64,000 nucleotides of DNA from positions 101,266 through 165,265 of the forward strand of contig JAKFYB010000001.1 in the NCBI GenBank assembly GCA_021731085.1. The letters are read 5' to 3'. Positions 4,244-55,196 of this stretch are shown here, one piece after another. A program made the translations under genes and the position numbers. Numbering within the stretch: position 1 is the stretch's first letter; every line of letters starts with the position of its first letter. The notes beneath the pieces were generated by a model, which ran no database searches, was not told the origin of the DNA, and worked only from the letters and a program-made list of their open reading frames with translations. The stretch is from Dehalococcoidia bacterium (GTDB lineage: Bacteria; Chloroflexota; Dehalococcoidia; DSTF01; JACRBR01).

Positions 4244-5371
4244 TCATGCGGCTCGAGCTGCTGTGCGTTCCTCGACATTTCCGGCAATCGCTTCGATATA
4301 GCGGTCGGCCGTGCGACCCCAACCGAAGTTGTCCAGCGTGTACGACCGCATGCGGGCCCCGGCGTCCACGATCGCCTGTCGCGGCAACGAGAGGAGACCG
4401 CGAATCTCAGCGGCCCACGCAGACGCGTCTAGCGGCGGAACAAGCACGCCGTTCCCTCCGTGATGGATCGCCTCGGGGATTCCGTCGAGATTCGAAGCCA
4501 GGACGGGAAGCCCGGAAGCGGAAGCCTCAAGTGCGACCAGGCCAAAGCCCTCCATATCGCCAGTCACAGGCACGTTTGGCATGACGAAGAGATCAGACGA
4601 GGCGTAAGCCGCCGCCAGAACCGAGTCGGTGACGCTTCCCAACATTCGAATGCGGTCATGCACACCCGCGATTGCAGCGGCTCGTTCGATTTCCCCCTTC
4701 ATCGCTCCGACACCGATGATGCAGTACGTGACATCCTCGGGAAGGCGTGGTAGCACATGCTCCACAAACCATGCGACGCCCTTGCGTTCGATCAGGCGAC
4801 CGACGGTCAGAACCACTCGCTCCCCTTCCCGCACTGCGGCCAGTTTGCTGAACTGTTGTCGCGCCTCCGTGGTTGGTTCAGGCAACGGGTTTATTCCCAA
4901 CGGGATCACTTCTGACATTGGATTGGGGCCAGTCCGCTCGTGCATCGCGGCCTCGGTTGCTGCACTGATCGGCATCGCCAAATCGATGCGGCGCAGGCCG
5001 TTGGTGATCACCCGCTGATAGATTTCGTTTTCGTACGTGACATCAAGACCGCACACCGACGCGGTCACTCGAATCCCGGTTGCGGCTTTGATCGCCGCGC
5101 CGACCGGTGCGAGCAACGCGTCTGCAAGATGGACGCTAGTAAAGCCGCCGGAGCGCACCTGACGGACTGCTGCTGTCGCCGCATACGGAAGAAACAGTGG
5201 CAGCGCCTTCTTTCCCCGATGGTTGATGAGGGAAACAATCTCGACGCGTTCCTCGAGGTGATTGTGGAGCTGCAACGCAAGGTTTTCCATCCCGCCCTGG
5301 GTCGGTGGATATGCGCGGGCAATGAACAGGATCTTCAAGTCTGTCGCGCGAACGGCACTAGCGAGACGCAT
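4244..5371 (-). CDS. Glycosyltransferase family 4 (GT-B)
   Basis: EGFGLVALEASASGLPV motif and overall GT4 architecture; 375 aa. Confidence 0.8.
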   Translation of the reverse strand: MRLASAVRATDLKILFIARAYPPTQGGMENLALQLHNHLEERVEIVSLINHRGKKALPLFLPYAATAAVRQVRSGGFTSVHLADALLAPVGAAIKAATGIRVTASVCGLDVTYENEIYQRVITNGLRRIDLAMPISAATEAAMHERTGPNPMSEVIPLGINPLPEPTTEARQQFSKLAAVREGERVVLTVGRLIERKGVAWFVEHVLPRLPEDVTYCIIGVGAMKGEIERAAAIAGVHDRIRMLGSVTDSVLAAAYASSDLFVMPNVPVTGDMEGFGLVALEASASGLPVLASNLDGIPEAIHHGGNGVLVPPLDASAWAAEIRGLLSLPRQAIVDAGARMRSYTLDNFGWGRTADRYIEAIAGNVEERTAARAA

Positions 5372-7091
5372 TGGGCTCCTCCTCCAGTGTCTTCACCTCG
5401 TATAGGCGAAGGCCGTGTTCTATGTCTCGACCCCGTAGCGCCACCTTTTCATTGGTTGTCGTCATTTGGACCAGCTCGAAGTATTCGGACGGCGTGTTTA
5501 GTTGTAGAAACGACCGCATGCCATCTCTCGGCATCGCATCGACGTAAGCCCCGGGTGGATCCGAGATCAGCACGTAATCGATCCCGTATGCATTCAAAAT
5601 CTCATTCGCGCGGCGCGGCTCGCCTGTTGTGATCGCGTCGACCACCCACGCATTCCCATAGAACGTCACCCACGCCACATTGCGTTCCCATGTAAGCAGC
5701 GCCGTGTATGTCCTCGGTGTAAGGATTATGGTGTCGGGGGGAGTGTTGGCGTTAACCCACGCCCCCATCTCCGCGTATTCGGCGCCTCGAAAGTTCCGCA
5801 AATCGCGATCGCCCGTACGCAAGTACATATCCACCTCACGTGAGCTGTGAGGCGCGAGCCCGTAGAGTGCAGCGGCGATCAACGCAGCCGCCGTTGCGGC
5901 GCCAACAATGCGCAAGGCGTTGAGTTCTTCCCGAAGCCAACGGGCGCCAGCGGCGACTATCGCGTACAGGCCGAATGCGAACGCCGTGTGGAAGAGGATC
6001 TGCGAAGTGATGACGTACCGCGGATTCCCGTGAAGGAACACGAGCATCGCCGCGTCGATGGCGACTTGTGCCACGATCCAGCGCGCGAAAAAGCGGCTCG
6101 CACCTCCGCGGCCATGAAGGTACGCCACGCCTACCATCGATGTACCGATGACGAGCGCGGACATCCACTCGGGTGTCCAGCTCTCGGTGTACACCAGCGC
6201 GGTGCGGTATTTGTCTAGCCAGACGGTCGGCGATCCGTCCGGCTTGGTGATGCTGGCTATATAGGCATTTGCAGTCGGATCGATAGCCAGTGATGGGCTC
6301 ATGCCTGGCAGCCAGTTGTCCGCGTAGCCAATCGCCCCCGTGCGCATGGCAAGAAACAACAGTGCGGGGACTGAGGTCGCGAGGAGGCCCGCTACGAGCG
6401 TTGTGGTCCACGGCCATTCATGGAGGATCAGGCGTGGACGCCACGCGGCACGCTCTGCGATCCCAAACGCCACCACGAGGCTGAGCGCGAGGATGACGAA
6501 GAGGGCGTTCTGCCGCGTTGCAAGCCCCAATCCCAACAAGAGGCCGCTCAGGATCGCATAGCGTGGACGGCGCGTGTCGAATGCTACATAGGCCATCCAT
6601 GCGCCCGCGAACAAGAACGCCAGCATGACCGGTTCCATATACGGGCTTCGGTAGGGCCCTAAGACCGCAGGCGAAGACAGAAACACCAGCGAGGCAGCCG
6701 CGGCGACAATCGTTGGCGTTCCGCGTTTCGTAAACATGAACACTGAGCAAGCAACGACGCCTGCCGAAATCGCATTCAAGGCGATTACGCCTGCCAGCCC
6801 CGCAATCGTATACGCGGCTGCTCCGAGCACGTGGTACAGGGGTGGGTAGGCATAAGGGAACATCGCGACGATCTCCCCGCCTTCCTCCACGCGCGCCGGC
6901 GTGTGGGGCAGCTCAGTCGGTATGGAGCCACTCGCGGCGATGTCCTTGATAAGCCGGAGGTGCAGCGCTGGATCGCCATCGGGCGTCTCCGTGAAGTTTG
7001 CGCGAAGCAGCACGTACACAGCGGCGATGATCGCAACTCCGATGAGGATGGCGTACGCTCCGAACCACGTCGTCAGCCTCGTCCGCGTCAT
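5358..7091 (-). CDS. GT-C membrane glycosyltransferase (PMT_2/ArnT-like, GT39/GT83 family)
   Basis: At least ten predicted TM helices, the YPPLYH loop motif characteristic of ArnT/PMT-like enzymes, and a C-terminal soluble domain. Confidence 0.6.
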   Translation of the reverse strand: MTRTRLTTWFGAYAILIGVAIIAAVYVLLRANFTETPDGDPALHLRLIKDIAASGSIPTELPHTPARVEEGGEIVAMFPYAYPPLYHVLGAAAYTIAGLAGVIALNAISAGVVACSVFMFTKRGTPTIVAAAASLVFLSSPAVLGPYRSPYMEPVMLAFLFAGAWMAYVAFDTRRPRYAILSGLLLGLGLATRQNALFVILALSLVVAFGIAERAAWRPRLILHEWPWTTTLVAGLLATSVPALLFLAMRTGAIGYADNWLPGMSPSLAIDPTANAYIASITKPDGSPTVWLDKYRTALVYTESWTPEWMSALVIGTSMVGVAYLHGRGGASRFFARWIVAQVAIDAAMLVFLHGNPRYVITSQILFHTAFAFGLYAIVAAGARWLREELNALRIVGAATAAALIAAALYGLAPHSSREVDMYLRTGDRDLRNFRGAEYAEMGAWVNANTPPDTIILTPRTYTALLTWERNVAWVTFYGNAWVVDAITTGEPRRANEILNAYGIDYVLISDPPGAYVDAMPRDGMRSFLQLNTPSEYFELVQMTTTNEKVALRGRDIEHGLRLYEVKTLEEEPNASR

Positions 7092-8143
7092 GCGGACCTC
7101 CGTTCGGTCACGGCCGTGACGGGTGGCGCGCTAGCTGGTGACGGTGGGACGGTCTGCAGCGCTGCCTTGGTGCGTACCGCGTGCCACGCGACGTGTGTTC
7201 CAGCGACCACATCGATGATGAACGCGAGCACGAATAGCGCCAGGTCTGCGATCACCATCAGCAGGCGTAGCATGATGGCCGCCAGCGCGGCCACTTCCAC
7301 CGTAAAACGCGAGGCCAACAACGCTGTCAGCGCGCCGTCTCGCACGCCAAGTCCCGCTGGCACGAGTACGACGAGGATTCCAGCGACGCCCGCGAGCGAC
7401 AGCGCTCCTGTCGCGAGGAAGATGTCATCGACGGAGGCGCCGCCTACCGCGCGCAGGATGATCCACAGCGCAACGCCGTTGATTGCCTGGTTCGTGGCGA
7501 CGAAGAACGATGCGGCCATGAGCGCGCACGTAGGTGGTAGTGCGCCATCGGGCAGCGGCTCACGTCGCAGAATGCGCAGCGATGCATCGACGATGCGACG
7601 GAGGACGGACGGGTGCAACGCAGCAAGCGCGACCGAAGGCAGGAGTGCCAGCACGATGTATCGCCCGCCGCCGGCCGTCAGCCCCTGCGCGGCAACGATC
7701 ATCGTTGCACCGACCACCGTAGAGACCAGGATCTCAAGTACGTTCTGGACGGCAGTCGTCACGACAAGCGGTCGCGTGCCGTAGCCGATGCGTGTACCGA
7801 GGTACACCTTGCCGGCGAAGAACGGCAGGGTGCCAGGCACATAGCGGCCGAGCCACGAGTAAGAGAACGCCAGCATCAGACGACCGCGGCGGTGCGGCTC
7901 GGCCGCCGCTACGCTTTCGATGAGCACGATCCAGGCCGCGCCGAGGCAGAGGGTCGCCAGCATGAATAGACCGGTTGCCAGTGCAAACCACTCCGCATCG
8001 GCGACGAGGGCTGCTGTGTCCACGGATCCCGCGCCGTCGACGAGGCTGCGAGACGCGAACCACAGCATCGCTCCGAGCAGGGCGATGGCGATGGTGGCGC
8101 GCATGCCGTGCGCCCGAATCCAGCTTGAACGTGCGAGGTGCAT
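7088..8143 (-). CDS. Flippase-like membrane protein (lysylphosphatidylglycerol-synthase TM-region family)
   Basis: Polytopic membrane protein resembling the MprF TM domain. The long ORF-track N-terminus looks spurious; a start at MHLARSS (8143) is proposed. Confidence 0.5.
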   Translation of the reverse strand: MHLARSSWIRAHGMRATIAIALLGAMLWFASRSLVDGAGSVDTAALVADAEWFALATGLFMLATLCLGAAWIVLIESVAAAEPHRRGRLMLAFSYSWLGRYVPGTLPFFAGKVYLGTRIGYGTRPLVVTTAVQNVLEILVSTVVGATMIVAAQGLTAGGGRYIVLALLPSVALAALHPSVLRRIVDASLRILRREPLPDGALPPTCALMAASFFVATNQAINGVALWIILRAVGGASVDDIFLATGALSLAGVAGILVVLVPAGLGVRDGALTALLASRFTVEVAALAAIMLRLLMVIADLALFVLAFIIDVVAGTHVAWHAVRTKAALQTVPPSPASAPPVTAVTERRSA

Positions 8144-8492
8144 CGGCAATCCAGTCCGGGGTCCGGTCGCCCTGAAGCGGATCCGGCAGCAATCGGGCCG
8201 GGCGTCTTGCCCGGATCTCTGCTTCTCGCGCCCGCGTCTCTCGCGGCTTCGGCCCAGTTTCAGGGTGTGACCTCGATGAGTCAGTAGGGGGAGACCTGAG
8301 ACAGCCGGGTATGAACCCCTGCTTCCAGAATCGACCGCTGGCGATGAATCTGGATCACAGACGTTTAACAAACCGAGGCGTCTGAACCCCTCAAGTTGGG
8401 TTCGAGGTGGGCCGAACATCAGACGAGACCAGAATGGGGTTACGGGTTCGGTGGGTTGCCGTTCGACGTGCCTAAGCTAACAGGAGGACTGG

Positions 8493-17833: not shown

Positions 17834-18721
17834 CTACGGCCGGACGCCGATGAGCTTCGCGACCTTGATCGCGTTGAACAGCGCGAGGGCGACGTACCAC
17901 TTCACGCGGGTGCGCGTAGCGTCCTTCGTCTCGAGGCTGCCGATCGTCTCGACCTGCAGGCCGCCGGGGGACGTCAAGCCGGCGACCGCGCCTTCGCCGA
18001 TCTGCAGCGCGTAGATGGTCGAGCAGTCGCTGCTGCTGCCGACGGTCTTCGCATCGCCGATGTAGTCGCTGATGGCGACGGGGATGCCGTCGTAGAACTG
18101 CACCATCTGGCCGAAGTCGTTGCGGTCGGCCTGCAGCAGGCTGCCCGTCGCGCGGGCGAGCGTGTTCAGCGAGCGTCGGGTGCGCTTGCTCATGAGGAGC
18201 ATGGCCGGCGGGCCGCCCTTCACTGCGTCCACCAACTCATCGAGCTTGGCGAGCGTGAGCGACGCGCCGTTTGCGCCCAGCGTCAGCGACTGGCCGCCGA
18301 CGGTGAGCTTATCGATGCCGTCGAAGGACTTCGTGTCGACGGCTGAGTCGCCGTTGAGGAACGTGTCCTCGAACTTCTGCTGCACGGCCTTCGCGCGGAG
18401 GCGAATGACGGCCGCCTGCAGGTCCTGCACGTTATTGCGCGTCGTCAGCAGGTAGTTGTCGATGTCGGCGTCGCCGCCAATGATCTTGAGCGGCGTCGTG
18501 ATCTGCGTGAACGTCGGCGTGCCCTCCGTCCATGTGTCGCCGACGTCGAAGAACGTTGCGGCGGGGTTCACGTTCTCGCGGTTGTAGGTGAGGCCGTTGC
18601 CGGTGATCTCGACGAAGGGCAGCATCTGGAGGATGGGCGACTCCTGCACGATCGTCTCGATGACGCCCTGGAGGATGATGTCGTTCGAGAGCTTCGCGCC
18701 CTCGGCCAGTGTGAGTGCCAA
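17834..18721 (-). CDS. HK97-family phage major capsid protein-like (no delta domain), TTG start
   Basis: Matches the Phage_capsid pattern: N-terminal VIETIVQESPILQMLPFVEITGNGLTY, FLNGDSAVDTKSFDGI (LNGDG motif), YDGIPVAISDYIGD (LLGRPV-like) and a C-terminal AIKVAKL. AAGGA RBS 8 nt upstream of the TTG. Confidence 0.65.
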   Translation of the reverse strand: MALTLAEGAKLSNDIILQGVIETIVQESPILQMLPFVEITGNGLTYNRENVNPAATFFDVGDTWTEGTPTFTQITTPLKIIGGDADIDNYLLTTRNNVQDLQAAVIRLRAKAVQQKFEDTFLNGDSAVDTKSFDGIDKLTVGGQSLTLGANGASLTLAKLDELVDAVKGGPPAMLLMSKRTRRSLNTLARATGSLLQADRNDFGQMVQFYDGIPVAISDYIGDAKTVGSSSDCSTIYALQIGEGAVAGLTSPGGLQVETIGSLETKDATRTRVKWYVALALFNAIKVAKLIGVRP

Positions 18722-18847: not shown

Positions 18848-19378
18848 CTACGACGCCCGCTGCGACAGGCCGAGGCGGATCTTCTGCTCCGGCGAGAGCG
18901 TGCTGTAGTCGGGCGCGCCGCGCGGTGGTGCGCCTGCGGGCACGCGCAACGACTGCGCCTGCGTCTCGATGTGCGTGCGGACACGGCTTACGACGTCCTT
19001 TGCGGCGCTCACGGACTGTTCTATCGTTTCGATGTCGTCGCCGCCGATCAGTTCCGCCGGCAGCTCCGGTTCCGCGCGCGCGACGAGATCGCGGTACTTC
19101 TCGGCCGCTGTTCGCAGGCGTGCCTCCGCCTGCTCGACGAACGTGCGCGCGGACTGCGCTTCGTTCGCCGATGACTCCTGCGCTTCCTGTGCCGATGCCA
19201 GTTCGTTGCGCAGCGCCGCCGCTTCGCCAATAGCCGTTGCGGCCCGTGCTTCGGCGTCTGCGGCGCCGATCTGGAGGCGTTCAACCTCCGCTCGTGATTC
19301 GGCGAGCTGTTCCTGGAGCGCCGCCAGTTCCTCGCCCGATGGGGGCGACGCGGCTTGTGAGCCGGGGTCCTTCATCAT
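18848..19378 (-). CDS. Coiled-coil protein, putative capsid scaffolding protein
   Basis: 176 aa of Ala/Glu/Gln-rich heptad-like sequence, a strong AGGAGGTG RBS, GC3-rich codons, immediately upstream of the capsid-like gene. Confidence 0.45.
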   Translation of the reverse strand: MMKDPGSQAASPPSGEELAALQEQLAESRAEVERLQIGAADAEARAATAIGEAAALRNELASAQEAQESSANEAQSARTFVEQAEARLRTAAEKYRDLVARAEPELPAELIGGDDIETIEQSVSAAKDVVSRVRTHIETQAQSLRVPAGAPPRGAPDYSTLSPEQKIRLGLSQRAS

Positions 19379-20629: not shown

Positions 20630-21661
20630 GTGATGGCAAACAAACCGAAATACTGGGGCACGCTCGTGCCGCTGCCGGCGCCGGTGATAGCGGCGCAATG
20701 CCAGCAGTTCGAGGCGATGGGGCTAGAGGGAGCGTTCGCGCCGCAGGTCTCGTCGACGCCGTTCGCAGTGCTCGGGGCCGCAGCTGCCGTCTCGACGAAG
20801 ATGCGCCTCGCGTCCGGCATCGGACTGGCGTTCGTGCGCAGTCCTTTCGAGACAGCACTGCACGCGCTCGACCTCGACAAGCTCAGCGGCGGCCGCTTCA
20901 CGCTGGGTCTCGGCACGAGCGTCGAGTCGTGGACAGAGGGCTTCTATGGCATGCACTACGGCAAGCCGCTTGAGCATCTGCGCGAAGTCGTCGAGATCGT
21001 GCGGCTCGTCATCGCGAAAGGTCACACGGGCGAGCTGACGCGCTTCGAAGGCAAGTACTGGGAGCTGGACTTCAGCGAATGGCAGCCCTCTGGCCCGCCC
21101 GTGCGCGACAACATTCCGATCTGGATCGCCGCCCTCCGCACGCCGCTGATCCGCCTCGCGGCCGAAATTGGCGATGGCGTGATGGGGCACCCGATTTGGT
21201 CGCTCGACTGGGCGTCAACGAAGGTACAGGACGACCTCAAGGCCGGGCTTGCGGCGGGCGGTAAGCAGCGCAGCGACATCGACTTCAATGTTTGGCTCTG
21301 GGTCGCGCCGAACCCTGACCGAAAGCAGGCGATCGAGGACGCGCGCGGCACCGTCGCGTTCTATGCCGGCGTCGCGCAGTACGAGGAGTACTTCGCCGCG
21401 CACGGCTTTCGCGCCGAGGCCCGGGCGCTGCAAGAAGGCGTACAGCGCGGCGACTACCTCTCGGTGAAGCACCTTGTGACGGACGAGATGGCGCAGACGT
21501 TCGTCGTCTGCGGCACGCCGGACGAAGTGCGCGAGCGCGTCTCAGCGACCTGGGAGTTTGCGGATAGCGCCTGCCTCAATCCCCCCGCGTACGGGTTGGA
21601 GATGGGCGCAATGCTTCGGTATGGGGCCGCCATCGCGGACTTGTTTTACGCATCCCAGTAG
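20630..21661 (+). CDS. LLM-class F420-dependent oxidoreductase
   Basis: Luciferase-like monooxygenase TIM-barrel signatures. The window also encodes the F420 chromophore synthase genes cofG and cofH. Confidence 0.7.
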   Translation: MMANKPKYWGTLVPLPAPVIAAQCQQFEAMGLEGAFAPQVSSTPFAVLGAAAAVSTKMRLASGIGLAFVRSPFETALHALDLDKLSGGRFTLGLGTSVESWTEGFYGMHYGKPLEHLREVVEIVRLVIAKGHTGELTRFEGKYWELDFSEWQPSGPPVRDNIPIWIAALRTPLIRLAAEIGDGVMGHPIWSLDWASTKVQDDLKAGLAAGGKQRSDIDFNVWLWVAPNPDRKQAIEDARGTVAFYAGVAQYEEYFAAHGFRAEARALQEGVQRGDYLSVKHLVTDEMAQTFVVCGTPDEVRERVSATWEFADSACLNPPAYGLEMGAMLRYGAAIADLFYASQ

Positions 21662-23796
21662 CCGTGGAGCGACGCGATCTTGCCGTCGCTGTCAAGCGCG
21701 AGGACGATGACGCCGCTGAACGGGGGTGTTGTTCCATCGCGGTCCTCGACGCGCGTTGCGATTGCTGCTTCGTTTCCCGCGACGCAGATCGTCTCAATGC
21801 TCACGGAGTGGTTCGCGAACCGAATGAGCATCTGGTCGAACACCTGACCGATCGCTTCGATGCCGATCATCGGAATCATGCCTGGTGGATCCTGGCGCAT
21901 ACCGTGCTCTGACCACAGAGCGAGAAAGCTCTCGCGGTTCCCGGCGTTGATCGCGGCGACGTATGCCTCCGCCATCGCATACGGCCGCTGGTCGTCGACG
22001 TCGCGGAGCGGTCGAAACGATGTGACGGCCGAAAGCAGTCCCTCGTGTGAGGTCAGCACCTCGATGCCACGCGCCGCCGTGATGGTTCCCGGCGATTGAT
22101 CAAGATCCGTCCAGACGATGGCAACGTCGTCGCGCACGGCATACGCACTATCAAGGCGCAGGTCGTGTTGGCTGTGAGGCATTGCGTGATCCCACCACCT
22201 GGCAAGGCCGTCGATTCCGATGAACGGGGCCTCGTGATAGGGCACCTGCGCTACACAGTCTTCAGCAAACATGCCGAGAAATTCATCGCGGTCGCGCTTG
22301 TTGAGCACTTCGATGAAACGGTCGGCGAGGTTGCGCAGGCCTTCGAGCCAGGCACTTCGGTCTACATCGTCCACCTGTTCCACCCAGGGCGCCTCGTCGG
22401 ACTCCCAGTACGAATGTGCAGACGCGATCTTGCCGTCGCTATCGATACCCAGGATGTCCACGCCGACGCCTTCAGTTCGTGCGCCGTTGTCCTCGTACTT
22501 CGCACGCCACGCGATCGCGAGTTCATTCCCAGCGACGCAAACATGGTCGATGCTGAATGCGAGAGACGGATGAATGGCTGTCACGTCGTCCCACCAAGCA
22601 CGGATAGCAGCGTGCCCGATCCGCGGTGGCGTCCCGACTGGGTCCTGCTGAACGGCCTCGGGAGCAAACAGCGCGAGGAACGCCGCGCCATCACGCTCGC
22701 CAACCGCGCGAATGTACTGTGTCGCCAGATTCTGCATGGCCGGTTCTGTTGTTTTGCTCCGCGACCAGTAGGAGTGGCATGAAGCGATGAGATCGCCATC
22801 AAAGGACAGGATTTCGACACCACGCGCGTGGTGTATCTCGCCGTCTCGCTTATGCGCGATCGTCCACAAGATTGCCGCTTCCTCGCCCGTGATGTTGGAA
22901 GTTTCGAGGCGCACGTCGTATTCGTTATCGAGGGTGATTAACGCATCCCACCAGAGGCCGATCGCCTCATGGCCAATGTGGGGTGACTCGTCGATCGGAT
23001 CCTGGATGATGCCGTCCGGCGCGAAGAGTGCGATGAAGGCCGCGCGATCGCGGCGATTCAGCGTGTCCACGAACTCCTCGATGATCGCCCGCAGATCCGC
23101 CCTCCTGTTGCGCACGCTTGTGCTCGCGAATGCTGACGCGAGAGTCGCTGCCGCGGCGGTCGCATCATCGGCGCTGCACACTGCGCTGATGACGGCTGCC
23201 GCATCCGCGCCCGCGGCGATCACCTCCACGATGTTGTCGGCGTTGATGCCACCAATTGCGACGACGGGCACGTTGACGGCTGCCTTCACCGCACGGATGC
23301 GGTCGAGGTTCGCGGGGCGGGTGTCTTCCTTCGACGACGTCGGGAAGATGGCGCCGACGGCAACATAGTCCGCGCCGCCTGCCTCCGCTGCGAGCGCCTC
23401 GGCCGCGTTGTTCGTTGACACGCCGATGATGGCATCGGGGCCGAGGAGAGCGCGCGCTGCTGCAAATGGAAGGTCGTGCTGTCCCAGATGGACGCCGTGT
23501 GCGCCCGCCGCCGTCACTAGGTCAGCATGGTCGTTGATGATCAGATGCGCGCCGCGCTCACTACAGAGCTGAGCTATTGCGTGCGCATCCGCGATCTGTT
23601 CGCCTTTGTCGCGGCGTTTGTCCCGCCACTGGAGGATGTTCGCGCCGCCTTCGAGCGCGCCGCGTGCGACATCAACGGGCGAGCGATCACCGCACGCATC
23701 GGGATCGATGATGACGTAGAGTCCCTGAATTCGGTGCGGTGTCGCCATATTCGTTGCTGAGGGCTGGGTCATATATGATCTCATATTCCGGACCAA
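21646..23796 (-). CDS. thiE: Thiamine-phosphate synthase (ThiE) fused to four tandem NTF2-like (SnoaL/DUF4440-like) domains
   Basis: N-terminal ~210 aa has ThiE motifs (YVIIDPD, VSTNNAAEALAAEAGGADYVAVGAIFPTSSK). Four ~120-aa repeats follow, each beginning F(V/I)..LN.RDR..F..LFA. Confidence 0.7.
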   Translation of the reverse strand: MVRNMRSYMTQPSATNMATPHRIQGLYVIIDPDACGDRSPVDVARGALEGGANILQWRDKRRDKGEQIADAHAIAQLCSERGAHLIINDHADLVTAAGAHGVHLGQHDLPFAAARALLGPDAIIGVSTNNAAEALAAEAGGADYVAVGAIFPTSSKEDTRPANLDRIRAVKAAVNVPVVAIGGINADNIVEVIAAGADAAAVISAVCSADDATAAAATLASAFASTSVRNRRADLRAIIEEFVDTLNRRDRAAFIALFAPDGIIQDPIDESPHIGHEAIGLWWDALITLDNEYDVRLETSNITGEEAAILWTIAHKRDGEIHHARGVEILSFDGDLIASCHSYWSRSKTTEPAMQNLATQYIRAVGERDGAAFLALFAPEAVQQDPVGTPPRIGHAAIRAWWDDVTAIHPSLAFSIDHVCVAGNELAIAWRAKYEDNGARTEGVGVDILGIDSDGKIASAHSYWESDEAPWVEQVDDVDRSAWLEGLRNLADRFIEVLNKRDRDEFLGMFAEDCVAQVPYHEAPFIGIDGLARWWDHAMPHSQHDLRLDSAYAVRDDVAIVWTDLDQSPGTITAARGIEVLTSHEGLLSAVTSFRPLRDVDDQRPYAMAEAYVAAINAGNRESFLALWSEHGMRQDPPGMIPMIGIEAIGQVFDQMLIRFANHSVSIETICVAGNEAAIATRVEDRDGTTPPFSGVIVLALDSDGKIASLHGYWDA

Positions 23797-23865: not shown

Positions 23866-24585
23866 TCAAATCGTGAGGGCCTGGGCCGCTGCCGCGTCGA
23901 GCAGCCACGTCACGCTCGGGTGCTCCTGCAGCCACGATGCCGGGGTTTCAGGCCGTATCGGACCTTCGATCGCGCTACGGATGATGTCGGCTTTATGACC
24001 GCCGGTCGCCAGCACGATGATCGTCGTCGATTCAAGAAGGTCGGCGATGCCGAGCGTCATGCCATGGGTGGGCACGCCCTCGATGCCGCCGAAACTCGCC
24101 GCGTGAGCCTGGCGCGATGTGGCGGTGAGCTCGATGACGCGCGCCGGGCTATCGCGGGCCGAGCCCGGTTCGTTGAACGCGATGTGGCCAGTCTGGCCGA
24201 TGCCGAGGACGCAAAGATCGAGGCTGCCGCCGCGCCGGATTGCCTCTGCGTATGCGCGGATGTGGAGGTCGGGTTCGGTCGCGGATGGATTCGGGCAGTA
24301 CAGCGCGCGAGTACGAAAGCGAATGTGCTCGCGATAGAACTGCGTGTTCGTGCCCGGCGTCGTTCGCCTGGCATCGCAGAACTCGTCGATCGCGTAAACG
24401 AGCACCGCGGAGGGGTCGCACGCGCCACCGGCTGCACGTAGGTTCAGTTCTTCATATAGAGGAATAGGTGTGCCGCCGGTGGGGAGCCCCAGGTTCGCCC
24501 GTGGCTTTGCGGCGACAGCCGCGCAGATGAGGTCGGCGGCATATTTGGCGACAGCGGCGGCGTCGGGGAGCACTCTTATCGCCAT
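23866..24585 (-). CDS. nagB: Glucosamine-6-phosphate deaminase
   Basis: LPTGGTP and GIGQTGHIAFNEPGS motifs. Confidence 0.8.
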   Translation of the reverse strand: MAIRVLPDAAAVAKYAADLICAAVAAKPRANLGLPTGGTPIPLYEELNLRAAGGACDPSAVLVYAIDEFCDARRTTPGTNTQFYREHIRFRTRALYCPNPSATEPDLHIRAYAEAIRRGGSLDLCVLGIGQTGHIAFNEPGSARDSPARVIELTATSRQAHAASFGGIEGVPTHGMTLGIADLLESTTIIVLATGGHKADIIRSAIEGPIRPETPASWLQEHPSVTWLLDAAAAQALTI

Positions 24586-33123: not shown

Positions 33124-33537
33124 CTACTTCGCCCGCATGCGGTTGTTCTTCGCATTGTGCTCCACCTCTGCCAGCCCCAGCGCCTCCAGCACAGGCGGCA
33201 CGTACATCCCGAAGCGCCCGCGCAAGCCCTTCTTGATTCCGTACCAGCCCTTCACGGGGTTCTTCTCCGACCGCCCCCATGCTTCGACGGTGCCCTCGGC
33301 CGCCGCCTTCTGCTCGTCCGCGCTGCCCAGCGGCATCCAGTCGCCGTGCTTCTTCAGCATCGCCTGCAGGTCGTCGATCGCGCGCAAGTGGTAGCGCAGC
33401 TGCGTCTTCCCGACCTGCACGACGAGCGCGGGCGGATCCGTTGCTTCATCCCGATGCGCTTCGTACGCCGATGTACCCGGCGGCGTGGTCAGCTGCCAAG
33501 GCGATTCCTTCGTCCCTTTTCCTTTGACGCTCGCCAT
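33124..33537 (-). CDS. Hypothetical protein
   Basis: ORF with reasonable codon usage; start assumed at MASVKGK. Confidence 0.3.
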   Translation of the reverse strand: MASVKGKGTKESPWQLTTPPGTSAYEAHRDEATDPPALVVQVGKTQLRYHLRAIDDLQAMLKKHGDWMPLGSADEQKAAAEGTVEAWGRSEKNPVKGWYGIKKGLRGRFGMYVPPVLEALGLAEVEHNAKNNRMRAK

Positions 33538-33629
33538 CGTGCCTCCCGACCGCAAGTTGGGCGGGCGCTCTGGCCCGTCGCAGAAGTGACTTCCGAATAT
33601 ATAGTGACCGGTCGCTTGCCGCCAAGTCC

Positions 33630-33684: not shown

Positions 33685-34551
33685 CTACGTAGCCGCGTGC
33701 GGCGACTCCACGTCGCCTGTCGTCGGCTCTGGGTGTTCGGCGAGCGCTTCCTGCTCTGGCGTTGCACCTTTGTGGCGGCGCGCGTACGGCATCGCGATCG
33801 TCTTGCCGGGCTGTTTCGGGTGTTCCCGGCTCGCGACCTCCACGCCGAAGACGTCACGCAGCAGTTCGGGCGTGAGCACTTCGTCCGTGGGTCCGCTGCC
33901 GACGATGCGCCCGGCGCCCATCGCCAGCACGCGGTGGGCGTACAGCGCCGCCAGCCACAGCTCGTGCATCGATAGTACGACAGTTACGCCATGCTCCTTC
34001 AGCTCCGACAGCAGATCCATGAGCTCGAACTGGTGCGCGAGGTCCAGGAAGGCCGTCGGCTCGTCGAGCAGCAACACATCCGGCCGCTGGGCGAGCGCCA
34101 TCGTCAGCCACGCGCGCCGCATCTCGCCCTGCGAGAGTTGCCGCAGTGGCCGCGCGCGAAACCCGGCCATGTTCATCGCGCCGAGCGCCCACTCGACCGC
34201 GTGCGTGTCCTCGGCAGCGTTGCGCGAGAGCAGCGACTGGTGAGGGTAGCGCCCTCGATATGCCAGCTCTTCCACCGTCAGGTCTGGGAGCCCGTCGCCG
34301 CCCTGGCCGAGAAACGCCAGTCTCTTCGCGACGGCACGGTTCGGTAGCTGGTGCAGCACTTCGCCGTCGAGCAGCACGACGCCGGTGGTTGGCTTGAGAA
34401 TGCGCGATAACACGCGTAGCAGCGTCGACTTTCCGGCGCCGTTCGGCCCGATCAGCGCCGTGATACGACGCTCCTCTATGACGAGATCGACATCCTCGAT
34501 GTGAAAGCCGTGGCCGTATCCGGCGGATAGCGCGCGTGCCTCGAGCCTCAT
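33685..34551 (-). CDS. ABC transporter ATP-binding protein (iron-siderophore/cobalamin FepC/FecE type)
   Basis: Walker A GPNGAGKST, LSQGE signature and Walker B LLLDEP, plus a ~40-aa C-terminal extension. Confidence 0.85.
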   Translation of the reverse strand: MRLEARALSAGYGHGFHIEDVDLVIEERRITALIGPNGAGKSTLLRVLSRILKPTTGVVLLDGEVLHQLPNRAVAKRLAFLGQGGDGLPDLTVEELAYRGRYPHQSLLSRNAAEDTHAVEWALGAMNMAGFRARPLRQLSQGEMRRAWLTMALAQRPDVLLLDEPTAFLDLAHQFELMDLLSELKEHGVTVVLSMHELWLAALYAHRVLAMGAGRIVGSGPTDEVLTPELLRDVFGVEVASREHPKQPGKTIAMPYARRHKGATPEQEALAEHPEPTTGDVESPHAAT

Positions 34552-35570
34552 GTCTTCGCCCTGACCAGATACAACAGGAACGGCGCGCCCACGACGGCCG
34601 TCACGATCCCGAGCGGGATCTCCGATGGCGCGACGATTACGCGCGCAAAGAGATCGGCATAGACAACGAGCGACGCACCAAGCAGCGCTGACAACGGGAT
34701 CAGCTTGCGGTGATCATCGCCGATGAACGTGCGGCAGATGTGTGGGATCACGAGACCGACGAACGCGACCATACCCGCGGCCGCAACCGACGCACCGGCC
34801 AGCAGCGCCGCCGTCGCGACGGCGAACACGCGCGTGCGCTCGACGCTCAGCCCCAATGACTGCGCTGGTTCATCGCCCAGGGCGAGGATGTTCATGTTGC
34901 GCGCGAGCAGCATGGCTGCCGTGATTCCCACGACCGCGTACGGCCATGTCACCTGTAGGTCGTCCCAGCCGCGCCCGAACAATCCGCCCGCGAGCCACGA
35001 GAGTGCACTCTGGGTACTGAGGTTCGACGTCACAAGCATCGCGTTGATGCCCGCAGTCAGCAGCGCCGCGACGGCGACGCCGGAGAGCGCGAGCCGCACC
35101 GGAGACACGCCCCCGCGCCACGACATGCCATATACAAGCGCCGCCGCAAGGAACGTGCCAAGAAACGCGATCGGCGTCAGCCACGCTGGTCCGATGTCGG
35201 CCGAGATTTTGATCGCGATGCTCACCGCAAGCGCACCGCCGGCCGTAATGCCGAGCACGGTCGGGTCGGCGAGCGGGTTGCGTGTGACGCCCTGCAGCAG
35301 CGCTCCCGCCACCGCAAGACTGGCGCCGACGACGACGGCCAGCAGCACGCGCGGCAGGCGGATCTCCCAGACGACGACGCGGTCGAGCGTCGTTCCGTTG
35401 TCGAGCAGGCCATCGATCACTTGCAACGGGGAGAGGGTCGTCGCACCGAATGACAGCGCCGCGAACACGGCCAGCACTAAGAGCAGCACCGCGAAGCCCC
35501 ACACCGCCACCTCGCGCCCGGAGTTCGAGCGCGAAGGCGTAGCGGTTGGAGTAGTGGCGTGTTGCTGCAT
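34548..35570 (-). CDS. FecCD-family ABC permease
   Basis: Nine or ten TM helices with the FecCD conserved region; overlaps the neighbouring genes. Confidence 0.85.
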   Translation of the reverse strand: MQQHATTPTATPSRSNSGREVAVWGFAVLLLVLAVFAALSFGATTLSPLQVIDGLLDNGTTLDRVVVWEIRLPRVLLAVVVGASLAVAGALLQGVTRNPLADPTVLGITAGGALAVSIAIKISADIGPAWLTPIAFLGTFLAAALVYGMSWRGGVSPVRLALSGVAVAALLTAGINAMLVTSNLSTQSALSWLAGGLFGRGWDDLQVTWPYAVVGITAAMLLARNMNILALGDEPAQSLGLSVERTRVFAVATAALLAGASVAAAGMVAFVGLVIPHICRTFIGDDHRKLIPLSALLGASLVVYADLFARVIVAPSEIPLGIVTAVVGAPFLLYLVRAKT

Positions 35571-36604
35571 CAGTTGAAGATGTCCGGGTAGAGAAGCTTC
35601 GTCAGGATGTCGAGGCCTTCGCCCGCGCGCGGCCCCGGCGCTTGCAGGAAGATCGCGGCGTCGATCTCACTCACGCGTTCGTTGGTGACCGCGGGCACGC
35701 TCGCCCACGCGGGATCGGCCGCCAGCGACTGACTGATCGTCTCGCCCGGTGCCGCCGTGATCGCCAGCACGACTTCAGGCGCCTCGCCGATGATCGTCTC
35801 CAGACTGAGCTTCGCGTAGCCGGGGAACGGCGCGTTGCTCGGCTGTCCCGCAGCAACATTGTCCGCGCCCGCAAGCCGCGCGAGGTCGCCCACGTACGAC
35901 TCCGGCAGCGCGACGAAGAAGTCAGTCGGCGTGCCGTTGAGGATGACGACCTTCGCCTTCTCCGCAGGCAGCTTGCTCTCGATATCCGCGAGCTGCGCCT
36001 CAAGTGCTGCAGCCTGCGTCTCGCCTTCGCCCGTGTTCAGCGCCTGGCCGATGAGCCGATATGCCGTCAGTACGTCCTCGAAGTTCTCTGCGCCGATGTA
36101 GAGCACCGGTATGCCGAGCGCCTCGAGCTGTCCAGCAAGCTGCACCTGCAGCACGCTGTCCGCGACGATGAGGTCGGGCGACGCGCCTGCCAGCAACTCA
36201 ACGTTCGGTTGGTACGCGGAGCCGATGTCCGTCGCCGAGAGCGCTTCCTCCGGGAAGTCCACGGACGCCGTGCGCGTCAGGCTCGTCTCGCCGACGGCGT
36301 ACACGAACTCGACCGTCGTCGGGCTGATGGCGGCGATCGCGGCCGGTTCGGCGTCGATCTTCACGCTGCGGCCAGCCATGTCGGTCACCGTCAGCGGATA
36401 CGTCGTCTCCTCGTCTGCGGCTGCCGTCGGTGAGGTCGATGCGCCCGTCGTCGCTTCGGCGGTCGCGACCGGGGTTGTGTCGTCCGCCGTATCGTCGTCG
36501 TCGCTACATGCTGCTGCCGAGATCAACAGGGCAGGCAGTGCAGCGGCGACGAGCAGGCGCTTCCAGGTCAGGGATGTCCTCATTCGGGTGATGCTCCTCC
36601 ACAT
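35570..36604 (-). CDS. ABC substrate-binding lipoprotein (class III, siderophore/cobalamin-binding)
   Basis: Lipobox LLISAAACSDD and PBP-fold length. Operon with the permease and ATPase. Confidence 0.75.
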   Translation of the reverse strand: MWRSITRMRTSLTWKRLLVAAALPALLISAAACSDDDDTADDTTPVATAEATTGASTSPTAAADEETTYPLTVTDMAGRSVKIDAEPAAIAAISPTTVEFVYAVGETSLTRTASVDFPEEALSATDIGSAYQPNVELLAGASPDLIVADSVLQVQLAGQLEALGIPVLYIGAENFEDVLTAYRLIGQALNTGEGETQAAALEAQLADIESKLPAEKAKVVILNGTPTDFFVALPESYVGDLARLAGADNVAAGQPSNAPFPGYAKLSLETIIGEAPEVVLAITAAPGETISQSLAADPAWASVPAVTNERVSEIDAAIFLQAPGPRAGEGLDILTKLLYPDIFN

Positions 36605-36819: not shown

Positions 36820-37080
36820 CACATACAGGCGCAGACGCGCAGCAGTAGGTCTGGAAACAGCCACTAGCGAGCCGGTGATGGTGCAAGACCGGCGGCACGA
36901 CCAGATCGAACTCAGCGCCGAGCTGCCGGGGTGAATGTGGCACAGTCGTCCTCGGCTGTGAGACCTAGCCCCGACCGGGTCGCGACCGTTATCACGCTCC
37001 GAGAGTCCTTCCATGGAAGGAAAGAAGGGTGGCACCGCGGGCCTTCAACCCCGTCCCTTTATGAGGACGGGTTTTTTGTT
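36820..37080 (+). promoter_or_regulatory. Candidate T-box riboswitch leader (specifier-loop candidate GAA-CUC-A, Leu) upstream of ilvBNC-leuACD
   Basis: Exact T-box consensus AGGGUGGCACCGCG at 37026-37039, immediately before a canonical intrinsic terminator whose 5' arm (CCCU) can pair with the T-box AGGG in an antiterminator. Stem-I-like helix GGUCUGG/CCAGAUC, distal hairpin 36871-36892. No credible ORF in the interval. Confidence 0.5.
37050..37077 (+). terminator. Rho-independent terminator (CCCGTCC-ctttatga-GGACGGG + TTTTTTGTT)
   Basis: 7-bp GC-rich stem, 8-nt loop and a U6 tract, on the plus strand only. Confidence 0.7.
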
Positions 37081-37419
37081 AGCCTTCGGACTACGTGAAT
37101 GGCCCCGCTAAGGCGGAGGCAAAGGGATGTCGAAGCGGCATGGCCGATTCGATACTGAACAAGATGACGAACATCAACGCTTCTCCAACGGAGGTCACCC
37201 CGGTCGCAGCGGCCAGCCTACGGGCAATCCCCTGCGACCGCGACGTACTCCTTCCTCTTCTGCCGGTAGTGGGCGGGCTCCTTCCGCTCGTACTGCTTGG
37301 CCTCGCCCTGTAAACGTCCCCTCGGCTTGAACATTGATAGCGCGGGCGGGACGGTAAATTCCCACACAGCGAGACGCACGAGCCGCACGGATGAAGGCTC
37401 GGACGCAGGAGAAGCGAAC

Positions 37420-39132
37420 ATGGCAACCCAAGGCAAGATCAAAGGCGCCGAAATCATCATGGAATCGCTCCGCAAGGAGGGTGTCGACCTGATCTTCGGC
37501 TACCCCGGCGGCGCGAACCTTCCGATGTACGACGCGCTGCACAAGTACCCCGACATCAGGCACATTCTCGTCCGCCACGAGCAGGCCGCCGCCCACGCCG
37601 CCGACGCCTACGCTCGCGTCACTGGCAAGGCCGGCGTCTGTTGGGCGACGTCCGGTCCCGGCGCGACGAACCTCGTCACCGGCATCGCCAACGCATGGAT
37701 GGACTCCGTGCCGCTGGTGTGTATCACGGGACAGGTTGTCTCGTGGCTCCTCGGCCGGGACGGATTCCAGGAAGCGGACATCACGGGCATCACCATCCCG
37801 ATCGTCAAGCAGAACTGGCTCGTCCTCAACGTCGAGGACATCGCACCGACGATCGCCGAAGCGTTCCACGTCGCGACGACGGGACGTCCCGGCCCGGTGC
37901 TCGTCGACATTCCACGCGACGTGCAACAGCAACTGTGCGAGTTCGAGTACCCCGACAAGGTCGACATCCCCGGCTACCAGCCGACCGTGCAGGGCCACCC
38001 ACAGCAGATCAAGAAGGCGGCCGCGCTCATCGCCGAGGCCGAACGCCCGCTGATTCTCGCCGGACACGGTGTCGTTATCGCGCGCGCCGCTGAAGAACTG
38101 CAAGAGCTGGCCGAGAAGGCCGACATCCCCGTCATCACGACGCTGCTCGGGCTGGGCGGCTTCCCTGGTTCGCACGAGCTGTACCAGGGCATGCCCGGCA
38201 TGCACGGCATGTACTGGAACAACATCGCGATCCAGGAGGCTGACGTCCTCATAGCGATCGGCATGCGGTTCGATGACCGCGTCACCGGCTCGCTGAAGGA
38301 CTTCGCGCCGAAAGCGAAGATCATCCACATCGAGGTCGATCCGGCGGAGGTCGGCAAAAACGTGCCGACGGCAATCCCGATCGTCGGCGACGTGAAGGCT
38401 GTTCTGCAGCAGTTGCTGCCGCACGTTGAGCGGGCGCGTCACGACGATTGGCGCAACTGGTTCCGCGAGATGCGCCGCGACCACCCGTCGATCGCCATCC
38501 CGGAGACGGAGAAGATCCTGCCGCAGTACGTCATCAAATCGATCTACGATCGATCGCCCGGCGACGCCTACTATGCGACCGGCGTTGGCCAGCACCAGAT
38601 GTGGGCGGCGCAGTACTTCTGGGGTGACAATCCGTACTCGTTCGTCACGTCCGGCGGGCTCGGAACGATGGGATTCGAAGTGCCGGCGGCGATCGGCGTG
38701 CAGTTCGCGCGCCCGCAGAGCACCGTCTGGTCGTTCTGCGGCGATGGTGGCTTCCAGATGACAATGGAGGAGCTGGCGCTCTGCCGCGAGTACGAACTGC
38801 CGATCAAGTTCGCCATCATCAACAACCACTTTCTCGGCATGGTGCGGCAGTGGCAGGACACCTTCTACGACCACAACCTCTCGCAGGTGAAGATGTTCCA
38901 GCCGGACTTCGTGAAGCTTGCGGAGGCGATGGGCATCGAGGCGATCCGCGTCACGGACAAGGCCATGGTGCCGACGGCGATCGACGCAGCGTTGCAGCAC
39001 CCCGGCGCCGTCCTCATCGACTTCCACGTCGAGCACGTCGAGGACTGCTACCCGATGATGCCGCCTGGCGTCAGCCTCTCCGACACGATCGACCAGCCGC
39101 CGGTCGCCCAACTGCAGGAGGCGCTGCGATGA
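37420..39132 (+). CDS. ilvB: Acetolactate synthase large subunit (biosynthetic type)
   Basis: ThDP-enzyme motifs throughout and an N-terminus (MATQGKIKGAEII) typical of AHAS. AGGAGA RBS. The ORF-track start at 37297 looks like an upstream artefact. Confidence 0.9.
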   Translation: MATQGKIKGAEIIMESLRKEGVDLIFGYPGGANLPMYDALHKYPDIRHILVRHEQAAAHAADAYARVTGKAGVCWATSGPGATNLVTGIANAWMDSVPLVCITGQVVSWLLGRDGFQEADITGITIPIVKQNWLVLNVEDIAPTIAEAFHVATTGRPGPVLVDIPRDVQQQLCEFEYPDKVDIPGYQPTVQGHPQQIKKAAALIAEAERPLILAGHGVVIARAAEELQELAEKADIPVITTLLGLGGFPGSHELYQGMPGMHGMYWNNIAIQEADVLIAIGMRFDDRVTGSLKDFAPKAKIIHIEVDPAEVGKNVPTAIPIVGDVKAVLQQLLPHVERARHDDWRNWFREMRRDHPSIAIPETEKILPQYVIKSIYDRSPGDAYYATGVGQHQMWAAQYFWGDNPYSFVTSGGLGTMGFEVPAAIGVQFARPQSTVWSFCGDGGFQMTMEELALCREYELPIKFAIINNHFLGMVRQWQDTFYDHNLSQVKMFQPDFVKLAEAMGIEAIRVTDKAMVPTAIDAALQHPGAVLIDFHVEHVEDCYPMMPPGVSLSDTIDQPPVAQLQEALR

Positions 39133-39851: not shown

Positions 39852-40850
39852 ATGCCAACGATGTACTACGAGAAGGACGCTGACCTCGGCCTGTTGAAGG
39901 GCAAGACCGTCGGCGTGATTGGATTCGGATCGCAGGGCCACGCGCACGCCCAGAACCTGAACGACAGCGGAATCGACGTCATCGTCGGCCTCTACCCAGG
40001 GTCGAAGTCGTGGGCGAAGGTCGAGGCAGCGGGCCTGCGCGTCGGTACCGTGCGTGAGGTAGCGGAAGCCGCTGACCTCATCATGCTGACTGTGCCGGAC
40101 CAGGTCGCGAAGCAGATCTACTACGACCACATCGCCGACGGCCTCAAGCCCGGCAACATGGTGCTGTGGGCCCACGGCTTCAACGTGCACTACGGACAGG
40201 TCGAGTCGCCGGAGGACGTCGACGTGACGATGGTCGCGCCGAAGGGCCCCGGGCATCTCGTGCGCCGCGTATACACCGAGGGTGGCGGCGTGCCGGCGCT
40301 CATCGCCGTCCACCAGAACGCGACCGAGAACGCGAAGCAGATCGCGCTGGCGTACGCCAAAGGCATCGGCGCGACGCGTGGCGGCGTGCTTGAGACGACG
40401 TTCAAGGAAGAGACCGAAACAGACCTCTTCGGCGAGCAGTCCGTCCTCTGCGGCGGTACGACGCAGCTCGTGAAGAGCGCCTTCGAGACGCTCGTCGAGG
40501 CCGGCTACCAGCCGGAGGTCGCGTACTTCGAGTGCATGCACGAGCTCAAGCTCATCGTCGACCTGATGTACGAGGGCGGCATGGAGTACATGCGGTACTC
40601 GATCAGCGAGACGGCTGAGTACGGCGACTACACGCGCGGCCCAGTCGTTGTCGATGCGCATGTGAAGGACAACATGAAAAAGGTGCTAGGCCAAATCCAG
40701 GACGGCACCTTCGCGAAGGAGTGGATCCTCGAGAATCAGGCAGGGCGCCCGAGCTTCAACGCGCTGCGCCGCCAGAACGCCGCACACCAGATTGAAGAAG
40801 TCGGCGCGGAGCTGCGTGGCATGATGCAGTGGCTGAAGAAGAGCAGGTAG
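39852..40850 (+). CDS. ilvC: Ketol-acid reductoisomerase (class I)
   Basis: [13 protein letters not shown] Rossmann motif and full-length similarity to KARI. Confidence 0.9.
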
Positions 40851-45230: not shown

Positions 45231-45348
45231 GGTCTAGTAGCTGCGTAGCTTTAGCTGCGCCCGAGAGCGTCAGTACTAGCGGAGCTTTAGCTCCGCCGCA
45301 GAGTTCGAGCCAAGACGGGGCCTCGCCTGGCGAGTGAAAGGCAACACG

Positions 45349-48874: not shown

Positions 48875-48943
48875 GTTGAGAAGGTTACTGGTGACCGGTT
48901 ACAGGTGACAGCGCGCGGAGGGCAAAGGTGCATGGAGAATCTG

Positions 48944-49011
48944 ACCGACGACCGACGACCGACGACCGACGACCGACGACCGACGACCGACGACCGACGA
49001 CCGACGACCGA
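48944..49011. repeat. Heptanucleotide tandem repeat (GACCGAC), about 9.7 copies, between phnX and phnW
   Basis: Directly visible as gaccgacgaccgac... spanning ~68 nt in the intergenic spacer. Confidence 0.8.
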
Positions 49012-49012
49012 C

Positions 49013-49834: not shown

Positions 49835-50006
49835 GGATCCGCCGCTGGCGGTAGCTCCGAGGTCCTCAAGCGACGTTGATAACCCCTAAGTGGCGTAGGG
49901 GCCGACCTGTGTGTCGGCCCGCATGCGACGGTGCTACGTCCCGTACCGGAACGTCGGTTGGCGTGCAGCGCAAGCCCCTGGCGGCCGATATCTAAGGGGT
50001 ACACCT

Positions 50007-55085: not shown

Positions 55086-55196
55086 GGCGGCCCTGCGTGG
55101 CCGCCCATCGCTGAGCAGAACGAGATAGTAGGGGCGGCCCTATGTGGGCGCCCATCGTGGACAACACAGAGCGCGATAGCGAAAGCAGACAGCCGA

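Follow-up and report, generated by a model that had tools for sequence, protein, structure and literature searches.

A thiamine-phosphate synthase fused to tandem NTF2-like domains in an uncultured Dehalococcoidia bacterium

A 64,000-nucleotide stretch of DNA from an uncultured Dehalococcoidia bacterium (Chloroflexota; NCBI GenBank assembly GCA_021731085.1, contig JAKFYB010000001.1, positions 101,266 to 165,265 of the forward strand), referred to here as the window, contains a gene whose predicted product joins thiamine-phosphate synthase (ThiE) to four tandem NTF2-like domains. Sequence comparisons indicate that this ThiE-(NTF2)x4 product is a genuine, selected multi-domain protein of its host. 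The ThiE::NTF2 fusion combines known families in a new domain architecture that is confined to a clade of uncultured Dehalococcoidia.

Results

A single reading frame joins ThiE to four NTF2-like repeats

The gene occupies positions 21646..23796 on the minus strand and comprises 716 codons plus a stop, with TTG at the 5' end and no in-frame stops. An earlier reading of the DNA letters (the sequence-only reading) had described a single 716-amino acid (aa) open reading frame (ORF) with a complete ThiE domain and four tandem NTF2/SnoaL-type domains; Pfam, NCBIfam, and AlphaFold analyses support this description, which we refine by assigning the gene to the minus strand. The identical database protein (P0001, NCBI, encoded on a 214-kb contig) is 712 aa long and begins at the ATG at 23784 (M5), which, judging from this match, is likely the start codon. 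Two more in-frame ATGs are found at 23772 and 23748, and the exact start is uncertain, with up to 16 codons of play.

When the 716-aa ORF was searched against Pfam, TMP-TENI matched aa 26-206 (E 3.5e-60) and SnoaL_2 matched four stretches (E 1.9e-56), in support of NTF2-like folds in all four of the proposed repeats. The ThiE TIM-barrel domain, delimited by Pfam, NCBIfam, residue mapping, and Foldseek, covers aa 26-222 (23131..23721, minus strand, as are all segments of this gene). It is followed by a linker at aa 223-230 (23107..23130) whose sequence differs between homologues, so the junction lies at ∼23107-23130 and not at ∼23150-23200 as had been proposed. The boundaries of the repeats, set with a repeat hidden Markov model (HMM), are aa 231-346 for R1 (22759..23106), aa 351-466 for R2 (22399..22746), aa 484-597 for R3 (22006..22347), and aa 604-716 for R4 (21649..21987). 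The motif F(V/I)..LN.RDR..F..LFA...YW, previously ascribed to every repeat, is exact in R1; R2 and R4 begin with Y, and R3 ends with SFR.

The pairwise protein identity of R1-R4 is 21-40%, and a self-BLASTP search of the protein did not detect the internal repeats that the repeat HMM detected because they are too divergent. This level of identity indicates old duplications rather than DNA-level repeats, and a recent DNA-level tandem duplication is ruled out. The GC content at third codon positions (GC3) is 0.69-0.78 and alike in every domain, so there is no compositional break at the ThiE/NTF2 junction, and a foreign origin of the repeat region is ruled out by this uniformity. At its 3' end, the gene overlaps by 16 bp (21646-21661) the convergent gene for an oxidoreductase of the luciferase-like monooxygenase (LLM) class (20630-21661, plus strand).

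The fusion recurs in independent assemblies and is under purifying selection

Relatives were sought in a word-indexed search of 5.8 billion proteins and in an exhaustive HMMER (phmmer) search of the four-repeat region against 1.84 billion representatives. The ThiE::NTF2 fusion was found in at least 12 independent metagenome assemblies, obtained from different samples through Logan, ENA, and JGI; its identity is 47-54%, the repeats number 2, 4, or more, and the linker is continuous in all cases. The same fusion, for which the sequence-only reading had suggested a search of related genomes, is present in P0002 (706 aa, ThiE plus four repeats, 54% identity at full coverage), in the ten proteins P0003-P0012 (457-470 aa, ThiE plus two repeats, 48-53% identity), in P0159 (ThiE plus one repeat, interrupted by the contig end), and in P0123, a fragment from the exhaustive search that begins with the ThiE C terminus. 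A further fragment, P0124, derives from an R3-R4-type array.

A metagenome scan with an alignment of the full-length protein was drawn to ThiE motifs and yielded generic ThiE loci. When the repeats were compared by tblastn with all 89 fetched loci, matches were found only in L001, L002, L003, and L007. The ORF in L007 (3-1466, plus strand) is open to the 5' end of its contig and encodes repeats in the order A2-B2-A2'-B2' (classes described below). Its R3-like and R4-like repeats are 71 and 80% identical to those of the window and are followed by an additional A/B pair, giving a repeat count of at least four, or six if R1-R2 precede. The gene-caller product of this ORF (P0121, 326 aa) begins at an internal Met, short of the true open frame.

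In comparison with L007, a close relative, Nei-Gojobori estimates of the ratio of nonsynonymous to synonymous substitution rates (dN/dS) were 0.14 (R3) and 0.08 (R4). The comparison with L001, in which dS approaches saturation, gave 0.16-0.40 for R1, R3, and R4 and 0.19 for ThiE; R2 gave no estimate in this comparison, its dS being saturated. These ratios indicate that the repeats, including R3 with its lost Asp, are under purifying selection (dN/dS ∼0.1).

The above findings bear on whether the fusion is an artefact or a pseudogene, in which a sequencing or assembly error, or the recent loss of a stop codon, has merged two neighboring genes. Such events are a general concern for sequences derived from metagenome-assembled genomes (MAGs), and the exact protein has a single database record. 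However, the frame is uninterrupted in the 12 or more independent assemblies that differ in sample and source, the repeats fall into conserved orthologous classes, dN/dS is ∼0.1, a confidently modeled helix crosses the junction, and the exhaustive search found no stand-alone gene of this NTF2 subfamily that could have been the source. We therefore consider an artefact very improbable, and the lost stop between two genes that the sequence-only reading had offered as an alternative is effectively refuted, given the recurrence of the fusion, its continuous linker, and dN/dS values of 0.08-0.14.

The phmmer search returned 571 proteins at E ≤ 1e-3 and five at E ≤ 1e-30, and all five of the latter are ThiE fusions or fragments thereof. 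Among the best 150 matches, no other protein has four matched stretches, the maximum being three in an unrelated protein with three DUF4440 domains; the first clearly stand-alone relative of the repeats is a secreted two-domain protein with 33% identity. The word-indexed search with the repeat region alone returned four proteins. Fusion onto ThiE, with later duplication or deletion of repeat units, gave rise to the array, which exists in versions of two, four, and at least four (possibly six) repeats. A search of the literature on ThiE with SnoaL or NTF2-like domains, and on SAR202 with ketosteroid isomerase (KSI), found nothing relevant.

The N-terminal domain has the fold and active site of ThiE

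The N-terminal domain scored 198.6 bits against the NCBIfam equivalog domain model TIGR00693 (thiE; cutoff 145.1) and 202.9 against PF02581 (cutoff 27). Its residues were mapped by HMMER alignment to Bacillus subtilis ThiE and by multiple alignment. Residues Q56, R58, K60, N88, D89, D108, S127, T153, S155, K156, G183, I203, and S204 occupy all 13 binding or catalytic positions, which correspond in B. subtilis to Q57, R59, K61, N92, D93, D112, S130, T156, T158, K159, G188, I208, and S209, the residues that bind hydroxymethylpyrimidine diphosphate (HMP-PP), thiazole phosphate, and Mg2+. The B. subtilis numbering follows the papers on structure 2TPS and fits a constant offset of 8 in the chain. 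Twelve of the 13 residues are identical in the two proteins, the sole change being the conservative T158S (S155), which is also present in ordinary ThiD-ThiE proteins, and the 13-site pattern is kept throughout the ThiE clade.

In Foldseek comparisons, the AlphaFold model of this domain has a template modeling (TM) score of 0.92 to Pyrococcus furiosus ThiE (1xi3) and of 0.83-0.86 to 2tps and 3o15 (0.83 for B. subtilis 2tps), compared with 0.80 to TenI; by sequence, it matches ThiE at 2e-38 versus 7.5e-15 for TenI. By both sequence and modeled structure, the domain is clearly ThiE and not TenI. Family scores, site mapping, and TM scores of 0.83-0.92 together show a predicted thiamine-phosphate synthase with an intact fold and active site, as the sequence-only reading held in calling the ThiE domain complete. 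ThiE is a frequent fusion partner, with ThiD, ThiM, ThiD2/RNase H, and others seen joined to it among the matches of the protein search.

ThiE has several fusion partners at one locus in sister lineages

The window ThiE domain falls in a clade of 62-70% identity that has four architectures: unfused ThiE, NagB-like::ThiE, HpcH-aldolase::ThiE, and ThiE::NTF2(n). These identities place the ThiE core within the ordinary ThiE clade of its lineage. Unfused proteins of 205-222 aa (62-67% identical) are encoded in L009-L011. An N-terminal NagB/Pgl-like domain is present in ∼ten proteins, including those of L004 (10001-11332) and L005 (4360-5691), and an N-terminal HpcH/HpaI-aldolase domain in ∼nine, including that of L006 (10001-11449). 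One HpcH::ThiE relative, P0022, is annotated as being from a Dehalococcoidia bacterium, and proteins attributed to Dehalococcoidia and Chloroflexota MAGs share 82-83% identity with the window IlvB. Whatever the partner of ThiE, these loci share a syntenic set of flanking genes: those for luciferase-like (LLM/F420-type) oxidoreductases, the Tad pilus genes, a cytochrome bc cluster, and an encapsulin-like pair. L004 and L006 also have aconitase, MarR, and methyltransferase neighbors in common.

A gene for a 239-aa protein of the NagB/Pgl superfamily (23866..24585, minus strand) lies 69 bp upstream of thiE-NTF2. Its product shares 61% identity with the N-terminal domain joined to ThiE in P0023 (NagB::ThiE) and falls below every NCBIfam equivalog cutoff, and the gene is directly upstream in every NTF2-type locus for which upstream sequence is available (the window, L001, L002, and L003). 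By these comparisons, it is the predicted orthologue of the N-terminal domain in the NagB::ThiE fusions of sister lineages and a conserved operon partner. A promoter and terminator scan found no promoters and one below-chance terminator-like site on the wrong strand, with none between the NagB-like gene and thiE-NTF2.

The window was also analyzed for a thiamine context. No TPP riboswitch (RF00059) was matched by Rfam in the 64 kb, the sole Rfam match being a T-box upstream of ilvB; no thiD, thiM, thiG, or second thiE was found by tblastn in the same 64 kb; and Pfam scans of 51 of the 55 predicted window genes revealed no thi families. Likewise, no genes for polyketide synthase (PKS) or FAD epoxidase were found in the window, and no steroid-degradation genes were recognized among the neighbors in the Pfam scans.

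The repeats form two pairs that differ in their catalytic positions

Each of the four repeats has a SnoaL_2 (PF12680) profile match and an alpha+beta cone fold. A tree of all repeats resolved four orthologous classes, with R1 (class A1) and R3 (A2) in one group and R2 (B1) and R4 (B2) in another, so that the array reads (A-B)(A-B). The two-repeat fusions are A1-B2, save for P0005, which is A1-B1.

The nearest characterized relatives of the repeats are enzymes, namely KSI and the polyether epoxide hydrolases/cyclases MonBI/MonBII and Lsd19. The repeats match MonBI/MonBII (9kw6) at E 7e-13 and Comamonas testosteroni KSI at E 1e-10 to 1e-11, with R2 matching the latter from end to end (E 1.4e-11, ∼30% identity), and Lsd19/LasB is also among their best solved relatives by sequence. 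In HMMER alignments, MonBII has a Tyr at the position of KSI Tyr14, where MonBI has a His, and both have the Asp of an EDPVG motif. The NCBIfam model TIGR02096 (KSI-related) gave 87.4 bits as the sum over the four repeats, still short of the cutoff (97.1), and the sigma-70/SigX5 models PRK08241 and TIGR02960 match the repeats partially. SnoaL polyketide cyclase proper was rejected as an identity for the repeats, its PF07366 match being much weaker than those to SnoaL_2 and KSI/MonB.

Buried Asp, Glu, His, and Tyr residues are conserved in a class-specific manner at KSI positions 14, 38, 86, and 99, and buried acidic residues at the catalytic positions are conserved in three of the four classes. 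At positions 14, 38, and 99, R2 has the full KSI-type set (Y361, D385, and D447), and Tyr/Asp/Asp is found in all three members of class B1. R1 has F242, D266, and E328 and a pocket His (H315); within class A1, position 14 is Phe or Tyr (Leu in one member), position 38 is Asp (Glu in 2 of 12), position 99 is Glu in 10 of 12, and the His is conserved. R3 has F494, V518, and E579, and all members of class A2 have lost Asp38 and kept Glu99. R4 has Y612, D636, and I697, the equivalent of Asp99 having been lost; across class B2, position 14 varies, position 38 is mostly Asp, and position 99 is Asp or Glu in most relatives. Residues that could serve as Asp base and Tyr acid are both present in R2 and R4, Asp only in R1, and neither in R3. 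From this pattern, we infer that R2 has the most complete active site and would be the best candidate for a catalytic domain.

The full-length AlphaFold model has a mean predicted local distance difference test (pLDDT) score of 83.4 and a predicted TM (pTM) score of 0.44, with five well-folded domains whose mutual arrangement is undefined. The last ThiE helix, the linker, and the first helix of R1 form a single long helix (aa 212-248) that is modeled with confidence across the junction. When an A-B pair was modeled, pLDDT was 91.8 and pTM 0.88, and a single NTF2 domain has a fold TM of 0.85-0.88 to KSI. Each A-B pair is predicted to pack as a rigid unit with the two-domain geometry of Lsd19 and MonBI-MonBII. 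As to the question of a single four-cone assembly raised in the sequence-only reading, the modeled cones do fold and the A-B pair is predicted to pack as a unit, but the overall arrangement is undefined at a pTM of 0.44.

Possible functions of the NTF2 module

The reading we favor, which we give an even chance, is that the NTF2 pairs form an acid-base enzyme module of cooperating complete and degenerate domains, and that they were joined to ThiE by the fusion-proneness of the locus and not by a shared pathway. It draws on the (A-B)(A-B) classes, the pair model, the matches to MonB and C. testosteroni KSI (tKSI), and the class-wise conservation of buried residues at KSI positions. Such a module might act on a small hydrophobic substrate, as an isomerase or as an epoxide-opening hydrolase or cyclase. 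Lsd19 is built from two catalytic NTF2 domains with an Asp base and a Tyr acid, and MonBI, inactive alone, strongly enhances MonBII (PMC8827043). By analogy, degenerate domains such as R3 would probably be structural or activating partners, as MonBI is for MonBII. Fusion-proneness at the locus seems more probable than a shared pathway as the origin of the ThiE fusion, in which case ThiE would be expected to synthesize thiamine phosphate without involvement of the NTF2 module. Coupling to ThiE is most strongly opposed by the exchange of fusion partners among sister lineages, by the existence of viable unfused ThiE proteins, and by the absence of any thiamine context in the window.

Several points weigh against this reading. 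The closest relatives of the NTF2 subfamily (E ≤ 1e-30 among the 1.84 billion representatives) are all ThiE fusions or fragments; a subfamily never seen apart from ThiE could mean functional coupling, and this is the strongest argument for it. Three of the four window repeats lack a complete set of catalytic residues, class B2 varies at these positions, identity to MonB/Lsd19 is only ∼19-20%, and the model leaves the placement of ThiE with respect to the pairs undefined (pTM 0.44). The neighborhood holds LLM-class oxidoreductases, which are syntenic with or without the NTF2 domains, but no polyketide or epoxidase cluster, and no substrate can be named for the module.

Another explanation, which we regard as rather unlikely, is that the NTF2 pairs act with ThiE in thiamine metabolism. 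One possibility is a TenI-independent thiazole tautomerase that would aromatize the ThiG product through a 1,3-proton shift of the KSI type; alternatively, the pairs might serve as an isomerase or hydrolase for the repair or salvage of a damaged thiazole or pyrimidine precursor, which would then be passed to ThiE. This explanation would account for an NTF2 subfamily found only fused to ThiE, for the persistence of the fusion to ∼50% divergence under purifying selection, and for the KSI-type proton-shuttle triad retained in R2. In addition, TenI, the paralogue of ThiE that catalyzes the tautomerization, is absent from most bacteria, and the domain present here is ThiE and not TenI. However, most members of the family have two repeats, A1-B2, and so lack B1, the sole class with the full triad; sister lineages have the same ThiE without an NTF2 module (unfused or fused to NagB or HpcH); and the 64-kb window has neither a TPP riboswitch nor a thi neighbor. 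No NTF2-fold protein is known to act in thiamine metabolism, and a literature search for one found nothing, a paper on thiamin salvage by OarX containing no mention of an NTF2 protein. The most specific form of this explanation, in which the pairs provide an unrecognized activity of the pathway (TenI replacement or precursor repair or salvage), its product is channeled to ThiE, and repeat number is tuned among Dehalococcoidia lineages, is improbable.

It is also doubtful that the NTF2 domains are non-catalytic modules that control the activity, stability, or localization of ThiE, whether through the ligand sensing or through the scaffolding (here by oligomerization) that the sequence-only reading had suggested. 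The degenerate catalytic residues of R1, R3, and R4 would fit such a role, and a variable number of repeats (2, 4, or more) is more scaffold-like than enzyme-like. SnoaL_2 domains act as regulatory C-terminal extensions of extracytoplasmic function (ECF) sigma factors, and it is models of this type that match the repeats in part. On the other hand, the class-by-class conservation of buried Asp, Glu, and His would be costly unless functional, every one of the nearest homologues is an enzyme, the model predicts no defined contact of ThiE with the cones (pTM 0.44), and close unfused ThiE proteins evidently work without the module.

Other features of the window

A 295-aa protein with the HK97/Phage_capsid fold (PF05065, E 2e-14; 17834-18721, minus strand) is encoded next to a 176-aa protein without a Pfam match (18848-19378, minus strand). 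A 164-175-aa protein and a 295-aa capsid-fold protein are likewise adjacent in L004 and L007, and capsid-fold genes are found near the locus in L002 and L006. The pair looks like the shell and cargo genes of an encapsulin operon and not like a prophage.

A T-box leader (RF00230, 110 bits; 36823-37061, plus strand) lies directly upstream of an ilvB-like acetolactate synthase gene (37297-39132, plus strand), which is followed by ilvC (39852-40850), leuA (41368-42912), and leuC/leuD (43830-45948). This cluster is a T-box-controlled operon for branched-chain amino acids. Two adjacent radical-SAM genes (53859-55085 and 55142-56524, plus strand), the second with a CofH/MqnC C-terminal domain, may encode the FO synthase (CofG/CofH) of F420 biosynthesis, an identity that would agree with the abundance of F420-type LLM oxidoreductases in the window. 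A DUF6855 protein (33124-33555, minus strand; E 4e-70) adjoins a FecCD/ABC ATPase/periplasmic-binding-protein transporter (33685-36604, minus strand), and this association recurs in L002. Six large ORFs of 397-758 aa with high GC3 or long frames have no Pfam match at E ≤ 1e-6, in the regions 5358-8419 (minus), 48167-49879 (plus), 57273-58715 (minus), and 59330-62925 (plus).

Discussion

If the NTF2 pairs are enzymes, they would be the first paired module of the Lsd19/MonB type outside polyether antibiotic clusters, and the first to be doubled or further expanded within one chain. The host lineage consists of uncultured Dehalococcoidia rich in flavin and F420 oxidoreductases, and the module would point to unexplored small-molecule chemistry there. 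If the module is instead coupled to ThiE, it would represent a new accessory step or control point in a vitamin pathway that shapes microbial interdependence. Either way, a housekeeping enzyme is found with varied fusion partners (NagB-like, HpcH, and two, four, or at least four NTF2 domains) at one syntenic locus, which makes this ThiE locus useful for the study of how gene fusions originate and persist. The findings also caution against automated annotation in which all 716 aa are labeled thiamine phosphate synthase.

Compared with known systems, the N-terminal domain of the window protein resembles the ThiE proteins of B. subtilis (2TPS/1G4T) and P. furiosus (1XI3) in its fold, in passing the TIGR00693 cutoff, and in keeping the substrate and Mg sites. 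In the known fusions ThiD-ThiE and ThiM-ThiE/THI6, the partners of ThiE are enzymes of the thiamine pathway, whereas in the window the partner is a tandem NTF2 array without a known thiamine role. The same Pfam family is appended C-terminally to an unrelated protein in ECF sigma factors of the PRK08241/TIGR02960 SigX5 type, as it is in the window; those extensions are single regulatory domains, whereas the window protein has four domains, in pairs of catalytic type, on an enzyme.

KSI from C. testosteroni (tKSI) and Pseudomonas putida (pKSI) is similar to R2 in having Tyr/Asp/Asp at positions 14, 38, and 99, and its fold is close to that of the repeats. However, KSI is a single-domain homodimer, whereas the window domains are covalently linked hetero-pairs; the full triad is wanting in R1 (F, D, E), R3 (F, V, E), and R4 (Y, D, I); and the gene has no steroid-catabolic context. 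The predicted window pairs resemble Lsd19 (LasB; 3RGA/4RZM) and MonBI-MonBII (9KW6/9KW8), each of which is a hetero-pair of two packed NTF2 domains. Their identity to the window repeats is only ∼19-20%, and their hosts are Streptomyces; the window array, by contrast, belongs to a member of the Dehalococcoidia, has two pairs per chain, and is fused to ThiE away from any PKS/flavin epoxidase cluster.

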